Below are positions 24,477-32,905 of a stretch of DNA of 64,000 nt, piece after piece. How positions within the stretch are numbered: position 1 is the first letter of the stretch; each line of letters starts with the position of its first letter. The stretch lies in the NCBI GenBank assembly GCA_963997635.1, contig CAXEND010000001.1, positions 80,005-144,004 of the forward strand, written 5' to 3'. The notes beneath the pieces were generated by a model. It worked only from the letters and a program-made list of their open reading frames with translations. It searched no databases and was not told where the DNA came from. Source of the stretch: an uncultured Rhodospirillaceae bacterium. GTDB taxonomy: Bacteria; Pseudomonadota; Alphaproteobacteria; UBA828. The position numbers were made by a program, and so were the translations under genes.

Positions 24477-27400
24477 GTGAATCTTGGTTATTCTGGTCTT
24501 ATAGGTTTGTTTACTAAACACCGCACAGCTGCCAATCTATTAATGTTATTTTTTATAATGATTGGTGTAGTGGCTTTTGGGAAACTCAATACCCAATTCT
24601 TTCCATCTTTTAGTATAAATTGGGTTACCATCTCTATTGCTTGGCCAGGGGCAGCAGCAGAGGATATTGACTCAAATATTATTGGACTTATTGAGCCAGA
24701 AGTTAGGTTTATTGATAGTGTAAAAAGGGTAGTTTCAACATCGTCTCAAGGTTCAGGTTGGCTTGCCATAGAATTTGAATCTTCAGCGGATATGCAGACG
24801 GCCTTGGCTGACGTTGAAACATCGATAGCACAAGTAACAAATTTACCTAAGGATTCAGATAAACCTATTGTACAGAGAATTTATAATTATGAAACAATTT
24901 CAAGAATTGTTGTCTCTGGTCCCTTTGAGGAATCATCTCTAAAGGCACTCGCAAAAGATTTACGGGAAGGGATGCTTAATTCTGGGATCGATAAAGTTGA
25001 TTTATTCGGTGCAAGAGAGGAAGAAATTTGGGTAGAGGTTCCCTCAGAGATTATGCAACAAATGGGTTTAACTCCCTCTATTATTGCACAGCGAATTGCA
25101 GATTCTTCAATTGATGTCCCATCGGGAGTAACCCCTGGATCTAACCAAAAGCAGATTAGAAGTCTTGGAATAGCTAAAGATGTGGACTCCATAAATACTA
25201 TTAATGTTAAGACATCATCCAATGGTCAACGAATAACATTGGGTGATATTGCAAAGGTTACAAACTCGTTTGAAGAAAATTCTATTGAGACTCTTAGAAA
25301 GGGTAATTCAGCAATAGAACTTCATGTTAGAAGAGCACTAACATCAGATGCTCTTGAGCAGTCATCAAAACTTGATTCATTCCTTGCTAATACTTTGCCT
25401 ACGTTACCCGATACTCTTAAGGTTGAAAGATATAGCGATACAGCCGAAATGATCGAGGATCGTATCAATCTTTTGCTAAGAAATGGTGCGGGTGGTTTGG
25501 CATTAGTTGTGGTGATACTTTTTGTTTTTTTATCTGGTCGTGTTGCATTCTGGGTGGCAGTAGGTATTCCAGTATCTTTAATGGCAACTTTAGGTGTGAT
25601 GCTTCTGTTTGGGCAGAGCATTAACATGGTAAGTTTGTTTGCAATAATTATGGCTTTGGGCATCATTGTGGATGATGCAATAGTTGTTGGTGAACATGCT
25701 GTAACTAGACGAAGTAAGGGTGATGATCCAGCCACTGCTGCAGAAATAGGTGCAAAAAAAATGTTTTGGCCTGTAATAGCTGCATCTTTAACAACTATTG
25801 CTGCTTTTATCCCATTATTACTTATTTCTGACATAATCGGACAAATTATTTACGCCATACCTATGGTAATAATTGCTGTTATAATAGCAAGTTTAATAGA
25901 GAGTTTTTTGATTCTACCTGGTCATCTAAGGTTCGCTCTAAAAAAAGACCCTGCTCAAGAAAATCTTTTTGCACGTTGGTTTAACCCGAAATTTAATGCT
26001 TTTCGTGATGGGTTTTTCAATCAAACTATAAGAGCATGTTTAAAATGGAGATATCTAACAGTTGCGAGTGCCTTGAGTCTTGGAATATTGGTTTTAGGAT
26101 TGATTGCTGGTGGTCGATTAGACTTTGTATTTTTTCCATCACCAGAATCAGATACAGTTTATGCTAATGTTGTTTTTGCAGAAGGTACAAATCGCAACCA
26201 AACTAGGGAAATGATTAGTGAACTTGAAAGATCTCTTTCAGTAGTAGAGCAAAGATTTGGTATGAGTTCAGGTGAGTTGGTAGTAATGAGCTTAGGCCAA
26301 ATTGGTCAATCAGTAGGTCGAGCTGATGATCCTGTTATGACTAATGGAGATCATATAGCTGCTATGCGAGTTGAACTTGTTCCTTCTGACACTAGAAATA
26401 TTCGCACGCACGATTTTGTTAAAACATGGCGTAAAGAAGTAAAAATGAGACCAGGGATAAATTCTTTTTCAATAGTCGAAGAACAGGCTGGCCCTCCAGG
26501 ACGTGAAATAGATATTCGTATAATAGGTGATGACCTTTTGTTATTGAAACAAGCAGCAAATGAAATCAAAGAACTTTTAAATAGATTCCCAGGAGTAAGT
26601 GATCTTAAAGATGATTTGCCGCGTGGAAAAACAGAGATGATTATGGAGCTTAAAAATAGAGGTAAGCTTTTAGGTTTCTCCACTGAGGAAGTTGGTCGCC
26701 AAGTCAGAAATTATTTTGAAGGATCAATAGCTGCGAGAATACCTAGCGATGACAAGGAAATAATTGTACGCGTAAGGTTACCATCGAGCCAACGAGGTGA
26801 AAATGATTTAAGACAATTATTTCTTTTGGCTCCAAATGGAAAGAGAGTTTCTATTTCGGAGATTGTAAAATTTCATGAAACTCAGGGATTTGCTTCAGTC
26901 AAGAGAGAGGATGGGTCACGGACTGTATCTGTTTCAGGAGAAATTGACGAAAACATTAGTAATATGGATGAAGTTCTAGAAAGTCTTCGTAAGGAAGGGC
27001 TTGCTGATATCTCTGCTAAATATAATGTAAAGATCAACTTTAAGGGTAAGGCTGAGGAACAAGCGACCACTATGGCTGACATGAAAGTTGGAGGAATAGT
27101 TGGTTTAGTTGCCATTTATCTAATTCTTGCTGCATTATTTTCTAGTTATTCGATGCCAATTTTTGTTATGTCAGTGATACCTTTTGGTGTGGTTGGAGCT
27201 ATATTGGGTCATCTATTTCTGGGTCATGATATAACTATACTGTCCATGGTTGGTTTATTAGGGCTTTCTGGAATCGTTGTTAATGACTCCATTATCCTTG
27301 TCAGGTCTGTTCAAGATCGCCTTAAGGAAGGAGAACCTCTTTATGAGTCTTTGGTTAATGGTGCACGTGATCGATTAAGGGCTGTAATTTTGACTTCGGT

Positions 27401-27602
27401 AACAACAATTTTTGGTTTATTACCCTTATTATTTGAGACTAGTCTCCAAGCTCAATTCTTAAAGCCAATGGCGGTAACTATAGTTTTTGGTTTGATAGGC
27501 TCAACATTTATTGTTTTAATTCTTGTGCCTTCTTTATTAGCTATACGCTCAGATATAGCTCAGTTAGTTAATCGCGCCAAAAATGTGGAACAAGCAGGAT
27601 AA
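24477..27602 (+). CDS. RND-family efflux permease (AcrB/AcrD/AcrF-like)
   Basis: 1041-aa protein with 12 TM segments and two large periplasmic loops, typical of AcrB-type transporters. Confidence 0.9.
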   Translation: MNLGYSGLIGLFTKHRTAANLLMLFFIMIGVVAFGKLNTQFFPSFSINWVTISIAWPGAAAEDIDSNIIGLIEPEVRFIDSVKRVVSTSSQGSGWLAIEFESSADMQTALADVETSIAQVTNLPKDSDKPIVQRIYNYETISRIVVSGPFEESSLKALAKDLREGMLNSGIDKVDLFGAREEEIWVEVPSEIMQQMGLTPSIIAQRIADSSIDVPSGVTPGSNQKQIRSLGIAKDVDSINTINVKTSSNGQRITLGDIAKVTNSFEENSIETLRKGNSAIELHVRRALTSDALEQSSKLDSFLANTLPTLPDTLKVERYSDTAEMIEDRINLLLRNGAGGLALVVVILFVFLSGRVAFWVAVGIPVSLMATLGVMLLFGQSINMVSLFAIIMALGIIVDDAIVVGEHAVTRRSKGDDPATAAEIGAKKMFWPVIAASLTTIAAFIPLLLISDIIGQIIYAIPMVIIAVIIASLIESFLILPGHLRFALKKDPAQENLFARWFNPKFNAFRDGFFNQTIRACLKWRYLTVASALSLGILVLGLIAGGRLDFVFFPSPESDTVYANVVFAEGTNRNQTREMISELERSLSVVEQRFGMSSGELVVMSLGQIGQSVGRADDPVMTNGDHIAAMRVELVPSDTRNIRTHDFVKTWRKEVKMRPGINSFSIVEEQAGPPGREIDIRIIGDDLLLLKQAANEIKELLNRFPGVSDLKDDLPRGKTEMIMELKNRGKLLGFSTEEVGRQVRNYFEGSIAARIPSDDKEIIVRVRLPSSQRGENDLRQLFLLAPNGKRVSISEIVKFHETQGFASVKREDGSRTVSVSGEIDENISNMDEVLESLRKEGLADISAKYNVKINFKGKAEEQATTMADMKVGGIVGLVAIYLILAALFSSYSMPIFVMSVIPFGVVGAILGHLFLGHDITILSMVGLLGLSGIVVNDSIILVRSVQDRLKEGEPLYESLVNGARDRLRAVILTSVTTIFGLLPLLFETSLQAQFLKPMAVTIVFGLIGSTFIVLILVPSLLAIRSDIAQLVNRAKNVEQAG

Positions 27603-29028
27603 GAGCAGTAAATAACTCTAACCTTCCTATCAACATGGCAAATGATAGTAACCATTTAGCTGCATCAGGTAATGGCTGAAAGTTTCCTGAAGGACCAATT
27701 ATATCGCCAAGACCAGGTCCAACGTTGGCGATTGCTGTTGCAGCACCAGATAGACTCGTCACATAGTCTAATCCCATAAGGGATAATGCTAAAGCGACAG
27801 TGCCAAAGCTGACAATAAATAAAAAGAAAAAACCCATGACTGCTCCTGGAACTTCATCAGGGACAGGGCGACCGTTAAACTTCATGGTAAAAATCCCATG
27901 AGGTTGAATTAACTTCAGCATTTGAACACGGGCAGTTGTATATAAGACGTGAATACGAAAAACTTTTATTCCTCCGGTAGTTGCACCAGTACAGCCACCA
28001 ACAAGCATAATAAGAGTGAATAAAGGCAGAACAAATGCACCCCATAGATTAAAGTCTGTTGAGGAATATCCTGTTCCTGTCATTACGGATATGGCATTAA
28101 AGCTTGCAAGTCTCAAGGCGTGTTCAAAATCTTCACCTCCTTGTGTTGACAACCAACCTGTTAGTGCAAGTATGGTAGCTATTGCAATTCCTAAAAACCA
28201 CCTTACTTGGGTATCTTTAATTAATGCTCTAAATCCTCCTCTAACTGCTTGAAGGTATAGAACAAAAGGTAGAGAGCCTAAAATCATGAAGACAGTTGAT
28301 ATTCCTTCAATAGCAGGACTATCAAAATGCCCAATAGATTCATCTAATGTGGAAAAACCTCCCGTTGCAATAGTAGTCATAGAGTGGCAAATAGACTGGA
28401 AAAGGGTCATTCCTGCTCCCCAGTATGCAATACAGTTAATTACGGTTAGGCCGAAATAAACCATAAAAATTGCACCAGCTAATGCAGCTGCTCTTGGTAA
28501 AACCTTGTCGGATTGATCAGAACTTTCTGTACGAAATAATTGCATTCCTCCTACTTGGAGGACTGGTAGAATTGCTATAGCGGTAACAATTATTCCTATT
28601 CCCCCTAACCATTGTAATAATGCTCTCCATAATAATATACCTGGTGGAGCTTTATCTAAATCAGAAATAACTGTTGAACCAGTAGTTGTTAAGCCACTCA
28701 TCGCTTCAAAGTAGGCATCTGCATAACTTAACCCTAAGTCACTAAAAACAAATGGTAGAGCAGCAAAGGCAGGAATGATTATCCAACTAAAGGTAGTAAG
28801 TACAAATGCCTGACGCACTGAGATTGCAGTTTTACTTGTTCTGCTGACTAATGTAAGACACCCGCCTAGGAAAAGGGTAAATAGGGCAGCTGCCAAAAAA
28901 ACTTGCCAGTCTGGATTATCAGCTATTCTGTCGGCGATTGCTGGAACCATCATAGCAAGCGCGAGTGTTACCAGCAAAATGCCGATCACTAGAAAAACAG
29001 GACGAAAATCACGCACAGAGCCCATCAT
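27568..29028 (-). CDS. trkH: TrkH-family potassium uptake protein
   Basis: 486-aa polytopic membrane protein with repeated selectivity-filter-like glycine motifs (TTTGST, TGTGYS, TGGFS); 3' end overlaps the RND gene by 35 nt on the opposite strand. Confidence 0.85.
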   Translation of the reverse strand: MMGSVRDFRPVFLVIGILLVTLALAMMVPAIADRIADNPDWQVFLAAALFTLFLGGCLTLVSRTSKTAISVRQAFVLTTFSWIIIPAFAALPFVFSDLGLSYADAYFEAMSGLTTTGSTVISDLDKAPPGILLWRALLQWLGGIGIIVTAIAILPVLQVGGMQLFRTESSDQSDKVLPRAAALAGAIFMVYFGLTVINCIAYWGAGMTLFQSICHSMTTIATGGFSTLDESIGHFDSPAIEGISTVFMILGSLPFVLYLQAVRGGFRALIKDTQVRWFLGIAIATILALTGWLSTQGGEDFEHALRLASFNAISVMTGTGYSSTDFNLWGAFVLPLFTLIMLVGGCTGATTGGIKVFRIHVLYTTARVQMLKLIQPHGIFTMKFNGRPVPDEVPGAVMGFFFLFIVSFGTVALALSLMGLDYVTSLSGAATAIANVGPGLGDIIGPSGNFQPLPDAAKWLLSFAMLIGRLELFTALILLVPHFWRD

Positions 29029-29089
29029 GGGGCTCCTATTTCCTATATGAGTTTATGCTTTGCCGTTATACGGCATGCATTTGCTTGTT

Positions 29090-29740
29090 TTAGCCTACGC
29101 ATTTGGATTTTCCAATCATATTGAGAAATTCTTGTCGAGTAGATTGATCATCACTGAAACTTCCTAACATTCTACTGGTTACCATACTGACCCCTGGTTT
29201 TCGTATGCCTCGAGTGGTCATACATTGATGTGCAGCTTCAATTACTACAGCTACTCCTCTTGGCTTTAGCACATCATTTATAGTGTCAGCAACTTGAGCA
29301 GTAAGAGCTTCTTGAATTTGCATTCGCTTGGCAAACACTTCAACTAGACGTGCGAGCTTAGAAATACCAACAACACGTTTGTTTGGAAGATAACCAATAT
29401 GTACAACTCCAATTATCGGAACTATATGATGTTCACAGTGTGATTCAAGACGAATGTCCTTCAAAATTACCATGTTATTATAGTTAGATATATCCTCATA
29501 GGTAGCCCCTAAGATGGTAACAGGATCTTCATTATACCCAGCAAAGAACTCTTCATAAGCTCTTACCACGCGTGAAGGAGTACCAATCAAACCTTCTCTA
29601 TTTGGGTTGTCTCCAGCCCATTTGATAAGAGTTTTTACTGCTTCTTCAGCCTCTTCGCGGTTCGGTCTTATTAGTGTCGAAGTTAATTTCTCTTCATTTT
29701 CAATGTTATCTTTAGTCAAACTAGGTCTCCTGTTTATCAA
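29090..29740 (-). CDS. folE: GTP cyclohydrolase I
   Basis: Conserved [10 protein letters not shown] zinc-binding motif; 216 aa. Confidence 0.9.
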
Positions 29741-29830
29741 ACTACAATGTATTTAAAAAACCATTACCTATATTAACTGCCTATCTAACTCCCAATATCA
29801 GTGAAAGCAAGTTATAAAAAATATAGTTGC

Positions 29831-30223
29831 TCAATTTATATGGGTACGAACATTCGGACTGTCGAGGGAAAAAGCAGGAATTTTTACATTAAAACGGTCA
29901 CCATTGGTAGTCTCCATCTCATATGTACCAGCCATTATTCCTGTTGGTGTAGTTAAGGGGCAACCACTTGTATATTCAAACATTTCACCAGGTTCTAATA
30001 CAGGTTGTTCTCCTACAACTCCTGGACCACGAACTTCTTGAATGCGGCCGAAACCATCCGTAATTTTCCAGAATCTATTGATGAGCTGAACTGTTCGAAC
30101 ACTTTGATTTTGAATTCTTACATGATAAGCAAACACAAAGCGTCCTTCATCAGGATCTGATTGTTCCTCAAGATAAAAGGGTTCTACAGAAACTTCTATT
30201 TCTTGTGTTGTTTCGTAATACAT
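29831..30223 (-). CDS. apaG: ApaG (DUF525) protein
   Basis: 130 aa; conserved ApaG core (FAYHVRIQNQS...FWKITDG). Confidence 0.85.
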   Translation of the reverse strand: MYYETTQEIEVSVEPFYLEEQSDPDEGRFVFAYHVRIQNQSVRTVQLINRFWKITDGFGRIQEVRGPGVVGEQPVLEPGEMFEYTSGCPLTTPTGIMAGTYEMETTNGDRFNVKIPAFSLDSPNVRTHIN

Positions 30224-30298
30224 TTGCCTAAAAAATTACCTTCTTGAATACTGCTGCTAATGAACCCGACTCTTCTTATTTGGCTAATAATTTCTAAT

Positions 30299-31498
30299 TT
30301 ACAAGCTATTAATTGCTTGTCTTAGATCAACAATTAAGTCGTCTGTGTCTTCTAATCCAACCGAAAGTCTAACTAATGAGTCACTAATTCCTAATTGAAT
30401 TCTGTTATCTTCACTTAGACGCTGGTGAGTTGTAGTTGCAGGATGTGTAATTAAACTTTTTGAGTCACCTAAATTATTTGAAATATCAATTATTTTTAGT
30501 TCATTAAGAACTTTAAATGCTTCTTTTCTTCCGCCTTCAATTTCAAAAGATACAACAGTTCCACTATTACTCATTTGTTTTTTTGCAAGATTATATTGTG
30601 GATGAGTTTCTAAGCCTGGATATATTACACTCTGTACATTCGTAGAATTACTTAGAAAGTAGGCTATTTTTTGAGCACTTTCACACATGTATTTAACTCT
30701 TAGATGCAGTGTTTCTAAACCTTTTGTCATAACCCAGGCATTGAAAGGGCTCATAGTAGGTCCTGTATTCCTGTAAAAGGGGACTAGTTGATCTGAAATC
30801 CACTTCTCACTTGATAGTATTGCACCACCTAAACAGCGACCTTGCCCATCAATATGTTTTGTAGTTGAATAAACGACTATATCGGCACCTAATTCAAGTG
30901 GCTGTTGTAGTGCTGGGGAAGAAAAAACATTATCAATTATAACTTTTGCACCAATGGAATGAGCAATATCAGATAAAGTGCAAATATCTACGATTTCAAG
31001 TGTTGGGTTAGAAGGGCTCTCAAAGAATATACACTTTGTATTTTTCTTAAGTGCTGATTGCCATTCATCTAATGAACGTCCATCTACCAAAGTAACCTCA
31101 ATTCCATATTTTGGTAATAATTCAGTAATTATGTAATGACAGCTACCAAATAATGACCTTGAGGAGACAACATGGTCACCTGATTTAAGCTGACACATAA
31201 GTGATGCAAACACGGCTGACATGCCAGAAGCAGTTGCCCTACAATCTTCAGCACCTTCAATAGAAGCCAGTCGATTTTCAAAAACACGTACTGTGGGGTT
31301 CCCAAATCGAGAATATACAAAGCCTTCGCTTTCTCCAGAAAATCTTGCTTCAGCCAGCTCGGCAGTCTCATAAACAAATCCAGAAGTAGCGTAAATAGCT
31401 TCGGCGGTTTCACCAAATTTTGAACGATCAAGGCCGCTACGTACGGCTCTTGTTGCTAACCCCCAATTATTTTTACAATTACTTTTATCGTCTCCCAT
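30299..31498 (-). CDS. metZ: O-succinylhomoserine sulfhydrylase / trans-sulfuration PLP enzyme
   Basis: Cys/Met-metabolism PLP-dependent family (PLP lysine region STTKHIDGQG); 399 aa; an upstream candidate SAM riboswitch supports a methionine-biosynthesis role. Confidence 0.7.
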   Translation of the reverse strand: MGDDKSNCKNNWGLATRAVRSGLDRSKFGETAEAIYATSGFVYETAELAEARFSGESEGFVYSRFGNPTVRVFENRLASIEGAEDCRATASGMSAVFASLMCQLKSGDHVVSSRSLFGSCHYIITELLPKYGIEVTLVDGRSLDEWQSALKKNTKCIFFESPSNPTLEIVDICTLSDIAHSIGAKVIIDNVFSSPALQQPLELGADIVVYSTTKHIDGQGRCLGGAILSSEKWISDQLVPFYRNTGPTMSPFNAWVMTKGLETLHLRVKYMCESAQKIAYFLSNSTNVQSVIYPGLETHPQYNLAKKQMSNSGTVVSFEIEGGRKEAFKVLNELKIIDISNNLGDSKSLITHPATTTHQRLSEDNRIQLGISDSLVRLSVGLEDTDDLIVDLRQAINSL

Positions 31499-31525
31499 AG
31501 TATATTACCCCGTTATCAACACAGC

Positions 31526-31625
31526 AAAAAAAAACTCTGACCAAAAGTCAGAGCTTTAAAAAGCATGAGACCTTTTAGCCGTTTATTTTACGTGGCCGCA
31601 AGCCGGTCGACTCAAATCGCCACAA
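31526..31625 (-). promoter_or_regulatory. Candidate SAM-II-type riboswitch with intrinsic-terminator expression platform in the metZ 5' leader
   Basis: Minus-strand leader reads GCGAUUUGAGUCGACCGGCUUGCGGCCACGUAAAAUAAACGGCUAAAAGG, carrying the GAUUU...GGCUUG...GCUAAAA elements of SAM-II-like aptamers. It is followed by hairpin GCUCUGAC-UUUUG-GUCAGAG plus a U9 run, 28 nt before the metZ start. Confidence 0.4.
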
Positions 31626-31697
31626 GTATCATCAAACATTTAAAATGTTGTTGCGTCAAGAGGGTCTTAGCCATTTAAAAATTTATTGATTAATATA

Positions 31698-32687
31698 TTA
31701 ATTGCATGACCCCCCACCTAAAATGCAGAAACTGGAACAGTTTGGGTGATTAAGGGTTATATCTTTATTAGCTTTAGTAAGCGTTGATCCTAGTTCGAAA
31801 TTTTTTTCGTAGGGTATAAGTGTACATGGCATAACGACAGTTTCTTGTGATTCGCGTTTCTTTACTATCATACGTGAACGGGCACACATGATTTTGTCAA
31901 TTGAAATATCGAGAATATCAAGGCAGTTCTTAGTAATTTTTTGTGTTGTTCCCTCAATAGGCATTTCTGGGAATATGACTAGATGTTCATTATTATATGG
32001 ATCTAACCTGAGTTTTAAAGAATTAAAAAAGTCTTGAAATCCATCTCTTATTTTTTCTTCAGGTTCATTCCAAAGTTTTCTAGCTGCTATAGTAAAGTTA
32101 AATCCATGATCGTTAAGCCAATTCAAACCTAAACACATTGAATTCCATGAATTTTTACCTCTTTCCTCAGCAAAATATTTCTCCTTATAATGGTCGATGG
32201 ATATGCGTAGCTTAATTAAATCACCATAAGTATCCTGTAGTAATAACAAGTCCTTATATTTTTTCATCATAGGTCGCATTGCATTAGTAAGTATTAAGGA
32301 TGAAAACCCCCTATTGAGTGTTTCCTCAATTAACTGCATAATATTTGGGTTCATAAATGGCTCTCCACCTGTAAAACCAATTTCTTTCGTAGGCATATTA
32401 TATTTACTAATTTCTTCAAAATAGGGGATAATATCTTCTAATGTTGGGTAAAGTAGCCGGTTATTTGTAGGACTAGACTCAATATAGCAGTGAGGGCATG
32501 ATAAATTACACAGGGTGCCAGTATTAATCCAAAGTGTTTCAAGGCTATTCAAGTTAACTATTGGAGGTGTATCTGAATCTGAATAATCTTCACTAGGTTT
32601 TTCAGATAAAGTACTTTTATAATCATCGGAAGCTGGTTTATTGTTTAATGTCATTGAGATATCTTCTTTTTTATTTATGTATAGCAA
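31698..32687 (-). CDS. Radical SAM protein with C-terminal Cys-rich domain (possibly ArsS/DUF3641-like)
   Basis: CxxxCxxC motif (CNLSCPHC) about 60 aa from the N-terminus; C-terminal CSSFCILGGGSC; family assignment tentative. Confidence 0.55.
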   Translation of the reverse strand: MLYINKKEDISMTLNNKPASDDYKSTLSEKPSEDYSDSDTPPIVNLNSLETLWINTGTLCNLSCPHCYIESSPTNNRLLYPTLEDIIPYFEEISKYNMPTKEIGFTGGEPFMNPNIMQLIEETLNRGFSSLILTNAMRPMMKKYKDLLLLQDTYGDLIKLRISIDHYKEKYFAEERGKNSWNSMCLGLNWLNDHGFNFTIAARKLWNEPEEKIRDGFQDFFNSLKLRLDPYNNEHLVIFPEMPIEGTTQKITKNCLDILDISIDKIMCARSRMIVKKRESQETVVMPCTLIPYEKNFELGSTLTKANKDITLNHPNCSSFCILGGGSCN

Positions 32688-32780
32688 AAATGAATTAGAT
32701 TTTTACCAAAAAATATTTTCTCTATAATCTTGCTTGTTGGTTCACGAAAGTTAGAAAATGTTATTAGTATAGCTTTGTAA

Positions 32781-32854
32781 GCGGATGTATCTCAATGGTA
32801 GAGTAGAAGTTTCCCAAGCTTAAGACGAGGGTTCGATTCCCTTCATCTGCTCCA
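32781..32854 (+). tRNA. tRNA-Gly (anticodon CCC)
   Basis: 74-nt cloverleaf: acceptor gcggatg/catctgc, anticodon loop uuCCCaa, T-arm gagggTTCGATTccctt, encoded CCA. Confidence 0.8.
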
Positions 32855-32905
32855 ATGCGGCAGTTTTTTAATTTTGATTAGATCTAAAATGTATGGGATA
32901 GAGTT

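Follow-up and report, generated by a model that had tools for sequence, protein, structure and literature searches.

What controls metZ in this genome, and does the short region in front of the gene respond to S-adenosylmethionine (SAM)? The window, that is, the whole 64-kb stretch of DNA that was analysed (GC content about 37%), carries on its minus strand a gene at 30299–31498 that had been read as metZ in an earlier note on this DNA, and its product indeed reaches 577.4 bits against TIGR01325, with a cut-off of 510, identifying it as O-succinylhomoserine sulfhydrylase. The gene upstream of it on the same strand (31698–32687) had been taken for a radical SAM protein, and a match to PF04055 with 63.6 bits agrees. 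Between the two lies an intergenic region of 199 nt (31499–31697) which, read on the minus strand, holds an aptamer, a hairpin and a run of nine U. As set out below, we consider it very probable that this region is a SAM-II (RF00521) riboswitch that turns off the transcription of metZ when SAM is abundant. All features described lie on the minus strand of the window unless stated otherwise.

A regular SAM-II aptamer in the metZ leader

The scan of the 64-kb window with all Rfam families at gathering thresholds returned three tRNAs and one riboswitch, and no rRNA genes were found. The riboswitch match is to RF00521 (SAM_alpha, i.e., SAM-II); it extends from 31633 to 31555, covers the model at full length (positions 1–79 of 79) and scores 59.3 bits versus a gathering score of 36, with an E value of 8.6e-11 that applies to both strands of the whole window. 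The end of the aptamer is 56 nt away from the metZ start, and this position in the leader of a methionine/SAM gene is as expected for SAM-II. The earlier note had spoken of a SAM-II-like element; with a full-length match of this strength the wording can be corrected, and the metZ leader carries a regular member of the SAM-II family. The class is already known, the context is canonical, and standard annotation models detect the aptamer. Infernal searches with RF00521 and RF01826 had been named as the way to check the proposal, and they place SAM-II well above its curated threshold and give nothing for SAM-V.

Other families were considered in a permissive local scan. SAM-V (RF01826) has a similar SAM pocket in a pseudoknot with a triplex; no match to it appeared in 31400–31800 even at E values up to 10. 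The SAM-II long-loop variant (RF01726) reached 22.2 bits versus a gathering score of 44 and is a cross-match from the shared core, and the rimP leader, PyrR and several miRNA and sRNA models gave chance matches with E values of at least 1.5, far under their gathering scores.

The anatomy of the aptamer was drawn from the covariance-model alignment, per-sequence anchoring and the residue roles described for the crystal structure 2QWY (PMC3303485). Stem P1 comprises 6 bp including one U·G and is formed by UGUGGC (31619–31624) and GCCACG (31591–31596), the 5′ strand pairing with 31596–31591. Loop L1, GAUUUGAG (31611–31618), is invariant across relatives and contains a UUU (31616–31614) equivalent to U10–U12, which form the third strand of a triplex and contact SAM in the crystal structure (PMC3303485). 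In the pseudoknot, the P2a strand GACC (31605–31608) pairs with GGUC (31572–31569; placed by per-sequence anchoring) in a stem of 4 bp, and this is followed by P2b, also of 4 bp, with the 5′ strand UUGC (31598–31601), whose invariant residues correspond to U20, U21, G22 and C23. In the crystal structure, the SAM adenine is stacked between U21 and G22, the second U and the G of this strand (PMC3303485). An A-rich linker, L3 (UAAAAUAAACG, 31580–31590), has 11 nt as in most relatives and leads to the P2b 3′ strand GCUAAAA (31573–31579), of which GCUAA is invariant across relatives. Here, GC (31579–31578) pairs with 31599–31598 and AA (31576–31575) with the UU at 31601–31600, leaving U31577 unpaired in P2b; this is the equivalent of U44, which pairs with the adenine of SAM in the crystal structure (PMC3303485).

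The elements quoted in the earlier note, GGCGAUUUG (31621–31613), GGCUUGC (31604–31598) and GGCUAAAA (31580–31573), are thus all found on the minus strand. Furthermore, every nucleotide of the pocket and the triplex is kept (the L1 UUU at 31616–31614; U20, U21 and G22 at 31601–31599; U44 and A45–A47 at 31577–31574; 2QWY numbering), and the L1 UUU, the UU|GC and the GCUAAAA match the 2QWY pocket nucleotide for nucleotide. From this conservation we infer that the leader RNA binds SAM.

The leader and its pairing across relatives

A scan for relatives of MetZ with one genome per species returned 71 loci. The closest protein, 78% identical, is encoded at locus L001 in a marine metagenome-assembled genome (MAG) labelled Gammaproteobacteria, followed by proteins from alphaproteobacterial MAGs with identities of 55–62%; the closer relatives generally stem mostly from alphaproteobacterial MAGs, and many of the remoter matches belong to Actinomycetota. 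SAM-II riboswitches as a family have their hosts among alphaproteobacteria, with a few in other Proteobacteria and in Bacteroidetes. When proteobacterial-type loci were scanned with Rfam, RF00521 was present directly upstream of metZ in 15 of 36.

The pairing proposed for P1, P2a and P2b was compared on ten distinct aptamer sequences. Taken together, 95.5% of the cells were paired, versus 16–50% when the 3′ partners were slid by one to three columns; broken down by stem, the values were 93% for P1, 95% for P2a and 100% for P2b. In the trimmed alignment A2, a gap inside P1 in three rows accounts for three unpaired cells at columns 6/30. Two P2a pairs show compensatory changes, one of them being A-U in the window, L001 and L004 versus G-C elsewhere, and P2b is invariant across relatives and therefore uninformative on covariation. 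The earlier note had made its proposal depend on the formation of an H-type pseudoknot, which is well established for the SAM-II family (PMC1273637); in the window P2 can form, and the compensatory changes in relatives speak for it. The comparative pairing therefore supports the aptamer structure, in a sample that is small and made up of related sequences and so does not amount to independent proof.

Copies from very close relatives were available as well. The exact MetZ protein also occurs on Tara Oceans metagenome contigs and in the MAG GCA_002728135.1, and these share with the window a gene order of MFS transporter, radical SAM, riboswitch-metZ, apaG, folE and trkH. Among four strain-level copies from different ocean samples (L072–L075), the leader differs at no more than three positions, which is too few for covariation. 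One of the differences, in L072 at the position matching window 31591, is a change from G to T on the 3′ side of the outermost P1 pair and converts U·G to U·U; the other two are SNPs that both lie downstream of the terminator.

These comparisons bear on the idea that the element is a decayed or repurposed relative of SAM-II which does not bind SAM or binds another ligand, metZ being regulated in some other manner. The one trait that would fit is the shortened P2a, with only 4 bp in the window versus 5–6 bp in relatives. Against it stand the conservation of all pocket nucleotides, an RF00521 score 23 bits above the gathering threshold, the near invariance of the leader among strain-level copies from different ocean samples and the canonical gene context, and we regard loss or replacement of the ligand as very improbable.

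Several relatives deviate from the common SAM-II plan. In seven leaders (L009, L007, L011, L014, L008, L003 and L062), the UU and the GC of the P2b 5′ strand are separated by one additional C (UUCGC), which falls on the stacking site of the SAM adenine seen in the crystal structure or directly beside it; on RF00521, these leaders still outscore the window with 61–67 bits. In two SAM-II aptamers located upstream of metZ (L046:2817–2930 and L013:756–850), L3 carries a GC-rich insertion of 36–38 nt, apparently a hairpin, that sits between the P1 3′ strand and a GCUAAGA tail; their Rfam alignment is partial and, with 36.6–37.3 bits, just over the gathering score. The Pelagibacter loci have metZ without a SAM-II leader. 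SAM-V, which gave no match in the window leader, occurs in marine alphaproteobacteria, including near metZ in two of these loci (L023:2476–2540, L023:1271–1335 and L043:2499–2564). The SAM-V elements there precede metZ by a few hundred nucleotides and are on the other strand; presumably they serve divergent genes.

Putative promoter, terminator and the proposed switch

Putative promoter elements were read from the sequence and the spacing. A candidate −35 box, TTGACG (31654–31659), is followed after 17 nt by a candidate −10 box, TTTGAT (31631–31636), and transcription probably starts at about 31630–31624, a few nucleotides before P1. In the window, and likewise in 12 of 15 leaders from relatives, which represent several lineages, a TTGAC box precedes the P1 GTGG by 35–40 nt. 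A simple promoter scan did not list the TTTGAT box because it requires an A at position 2. A near-consensus promoter a few nucleotides ahead of P1 was likewise reported when SAM-II was first described (Corbino et al. 2005, PMC1273637).

Downstream of the aptamer, an intrinsic terminator hairpin (31532–31556; 11 bp, loop UUU) was found by an independent terminator scan and by folding with ViennaRNA, in line with the earlier suggestion that the leader contains an attenuator. The hairpin had been described as having 8 bp and being followed by nine U. This holds for the core, CUCUGACU/GGUCAGAG, with 8 bp including a closing U·G, and for the tract, which has exactly nine U at 31534–31526; the hairpin grows to 11–12 pairs through basal A-U and G·U pairs (31557/31556–31532/31531), and the first three U of the tract can pair with the stem base. 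On its own, the hairpin has a predicted energy of −13.3 kcal/mol. The gap from the last U (31526) to the metZ ATG (31498) is 27 nt rather than the 28 nt given before. According to the terminator scan, 31556–31532 with its U9 tract is the only terminator-like site on the minus strand within 31300–32900.

How SAM could act on this terminator is suggested by a segment that has two possible partners. The stretch GGCUAAAAGGUC (31569–31580) would be the P2 3′ strand when SAM is bound and the 5′ strand of an anti-terminator when it is not. The candidate 3′ strand of the anti-terminator is GACUUUUGGUC (31539–31549), which runs from the distal half of the terminator 5′ arm through the loop and into the 3′ arm, of which it covers the first 4 nt. 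This pairing emerged from folds of transcript prefixes, the lengths of which were counted from 31640 and which considered nested structures only, the pseudoknot being outside the folding energetics. At prefix lengths of 98–106 nt, the minimum free energy (MFE) structure pairs GGCUAAAAG(G)UC (31580–31569) with GACUUUUGGUC (31549–31539). At 106 nt the anti-terminator and terminator states are iso-energetic in the model (−27.3 kcal/mol each), and at 109 nt the nested-structure model favours the terminator by 3.6 kcal/mol without ligand (−30.9 vs. −27.3 kcal/mol). The duplex between tail and terminator has a predicted energy of −11.1 kcal/mol, a value reached by 0.3% of shuffles. When the P2 strands were blocked as a mimic of the SAM-bound state, the terminator formed in every fold of at least 107 nt, with a partial hairpin only at 104–106 nt. 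Since the full-length leader is predicted to form the terminator even without ligand, the anti-terminator can act only kinetically; a SAM switch is plausible on these models but must be a kinetic one. The full-length MFE structure also contains an alternative local hairpin, UAAAAGGU/GCUUUUUA (31557–31577), which in nested-structure predictions ties up the P2 3′ strand as well. This hairpin is perhaps a transient intermediate, and in such models it could capture the switching strand while leaving the terminator free to form.

The same layout recurs in relatives. All 12 distinct leaders that were checked share the terminator, and each of them shows complementarity between the P2a 3′ strand and the terminator 5′ arm, the terminator hairpins having been specified by hand for this comparison; the fractions of shuffles that match the complementarity range from 0.002 to 0.11 per sequence and are individually modest. 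The sequence of the P2a 5′ strand, although it varies between lineages, recurs in the terminator 5′ arm (CCGACC in L004, CCGGCC in the L009 group, CCCGGCU in both L013 and L046), so that strand and arm compete for the same 3′ strand. In L001, the predicted anti-terminator is longer, with 15 bp, and has a slightly different register.

Based on this arrangement, we propose the following course of events. Transcription would start a few nucleotides before P1 from the TTGACG-17-TTTGAT promoter, and the nascent RNA would fold P1. If SAM is present, the 3′ strand GCUAAAAGGUC would fold into the P1 loop, and the ligand would become enclosed by the resulting P2a/P2b pseudoknot and L1 triplex. Because the pseudoknot would hold the 3′ strand and make it unavailable, the hairpin 31556–31532 with U9 would form, RNA polymerase would stop 27–35 nt before the metZ start, and a riboswitch RNA of about 100 nt would be released. 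Without SAM, the 3′ strand would pair with GACUUUUGGUC in the upper part of the terminator as an anti-terminator and delay the folding of the terminator, such that polymerase would read into metZ and possibly into apaG-folE-trkH.

Some SAM-II riboswitches are translational, among them metX and Sinorhizobium meliloti metA, and it might be argued that the element studied here likewise controls mainly translation and hides the ribosome-binding site, the hairpin with U9 being a constitutive attenuator or pause site; that the full-length nested prediction forms the terminator with or without ligand would be compatible with this view. The putative Shine-Dalgarno sequence, GGGG (31508–31511), lies 9 nt before the ATG and 3′ of the terminator, however. 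At 57 nt downstream of P2 and past the terminator, it lies outside the pseudoknot, unlike its counterpart in metX. In addition, what the P2 3′ strand can pair with is the terminator and not the Shine-Dalgarno region, and the terminator design is conserved in relatives. Mainly translational control is therefore highly improbable, and termination of transcription in response to SAM is the reading that we follow.

Genetic neighbourhood and comparison with known SAM-II systems

The gene preceding the riboswitch encodes a protein for which a generic PF04055 domain is the only assignment; no NCBIfam equivalog threshold was reached, the best match being to the Rv1681 family with 76 bits versus a cut-off of 380. 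Since this gene lies 5′ of the riboswitch and its probable promoter, it is not controlled by the riboswitch, and it is a neighbour rather than a target. Beyond adjacency, nothing speaks for the riboswitch and the radical-SAM gene being functionally linked. A homologue adjoins the metZ leader in L001 (60% identity), and in other relatives it is located about 1.7 kb further away; it lies further upstream of metZ in L003, L007, L008 and L062. The adjacency of the two genes is ordinary synteny.

The hairpin with U9 could have an additional role that does not exclude the one in metZ control, namely as a conditional terminator for the radical-SAM gene, which would result in SAM-gated read-through into metZ. 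The two genes are on the same strand, 199 nt apart, and no other terminator-like site is present on the minus strand between the stop of the radical-SAM gene (31698) and the riboswitch, with the proviso that weak or Rho-dependent terminators can escape a simple scan. The conserved TTGAC box with its constant spacing to P1, found also in relatives without an adjacent radical-SAM gene, argues for a dedicated promoter, and we consider the additional role unlikely. Very unlikely is a further-reaching scenario in which the terminated RNA of about 100 nt, released at high SAM, is a stable trans-acting sRNA of this streamlined marine bacterium and the same terminator gates read-through from the radical-SAM gene. 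If true, it would tie a SAM-consuming enzyme and the synthesis of a SAM precursor to a single sensor.

In the downstream direction, the terminator scan found no terminator-like site on the minus strand in 27400–30400, so the riboswitch might influence more than metZ. The order metZ-apaG-folE(-trkH), which occupies 27568–31498 on the minus strand of the window, is conserved in many alphaproteobacterial loci. On the plus strand, a tRNA gene (32781–32863, 59.6 bits) is divergent from the radical-SAM gene, and its 3′ end overlaps a terminator-like hairpin (32847–32863) that is followed by a T-run; a tRNA is also present upstream of the metZ region in several relatives.

The system resembles three SAM-II riboswitches described before and differs from each of them. 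The founding member is the metA element of Agrobacterium tumefaciens (Corbino et al. 2005, PMC1273637), and SAM-II was defined in 2005 by just such leaders of methionine genes, in which a promoter, P1, the pseudoknot and a terminator follow one another (PMC1273637). The leader analysed here shares with it P1 and the P2 pseudoknot, the promoter (putative here) a few nucleotides before P1, the terminator between P2 and the open reading frame and the methionine/SAM gene downstream; it differs in that the gene is metZ and P2a is shorter, with 4 bp. The second is the experimentally studied metZ riboswitch of Sinorhizobium meliloti (RZ sRNA; Scheuer et al. 2022), for which termination of transcription upon SAM binding has been predicted and for which an RNA of about 100 nt is more common in rich medium, a condition that the authors equate with high SAM (PMC9373788). 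Both have the same aptamer family, metZ downstream and a Rho-independent terminator, and an RNA of about 100 nt would be expected here as well. Unlike in S. meliloti, the host is an uncultured marine bacterium with a genome of about 37% GC, the terminator is AU-rich, and the predicted anti-terminator uses the AAAAG of the pocket strand together with P2a. With the metX SAM-II riboswitch from the Sargasso Sea (2QWY), the element has in common the marine origin and the same pocket nucleotides (L1 U10–U12, U20/U21, G22, U44, A45–A48), but metX is translational with the Shine-Dalgarno sequence inside P2a, whereas in the window the putative Shine-Dalgarno sequence is far downstream and a terminator is present.

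Across the relatives, a simple design rule becomes apparent, with the P2a 5′ strand repeated in the terminator 5′ arm; the rule fits the general model of riboswitch function and opens no new question. For the SAM-II family, the leader adds one more natural sequence, in which P2a is short and the expression platform AU-rich. For the organism, the value of the finding lies mainly in annotation: it marks metZ as a gene that is, very probably, feedback-regulated by SAM via transcription termination.
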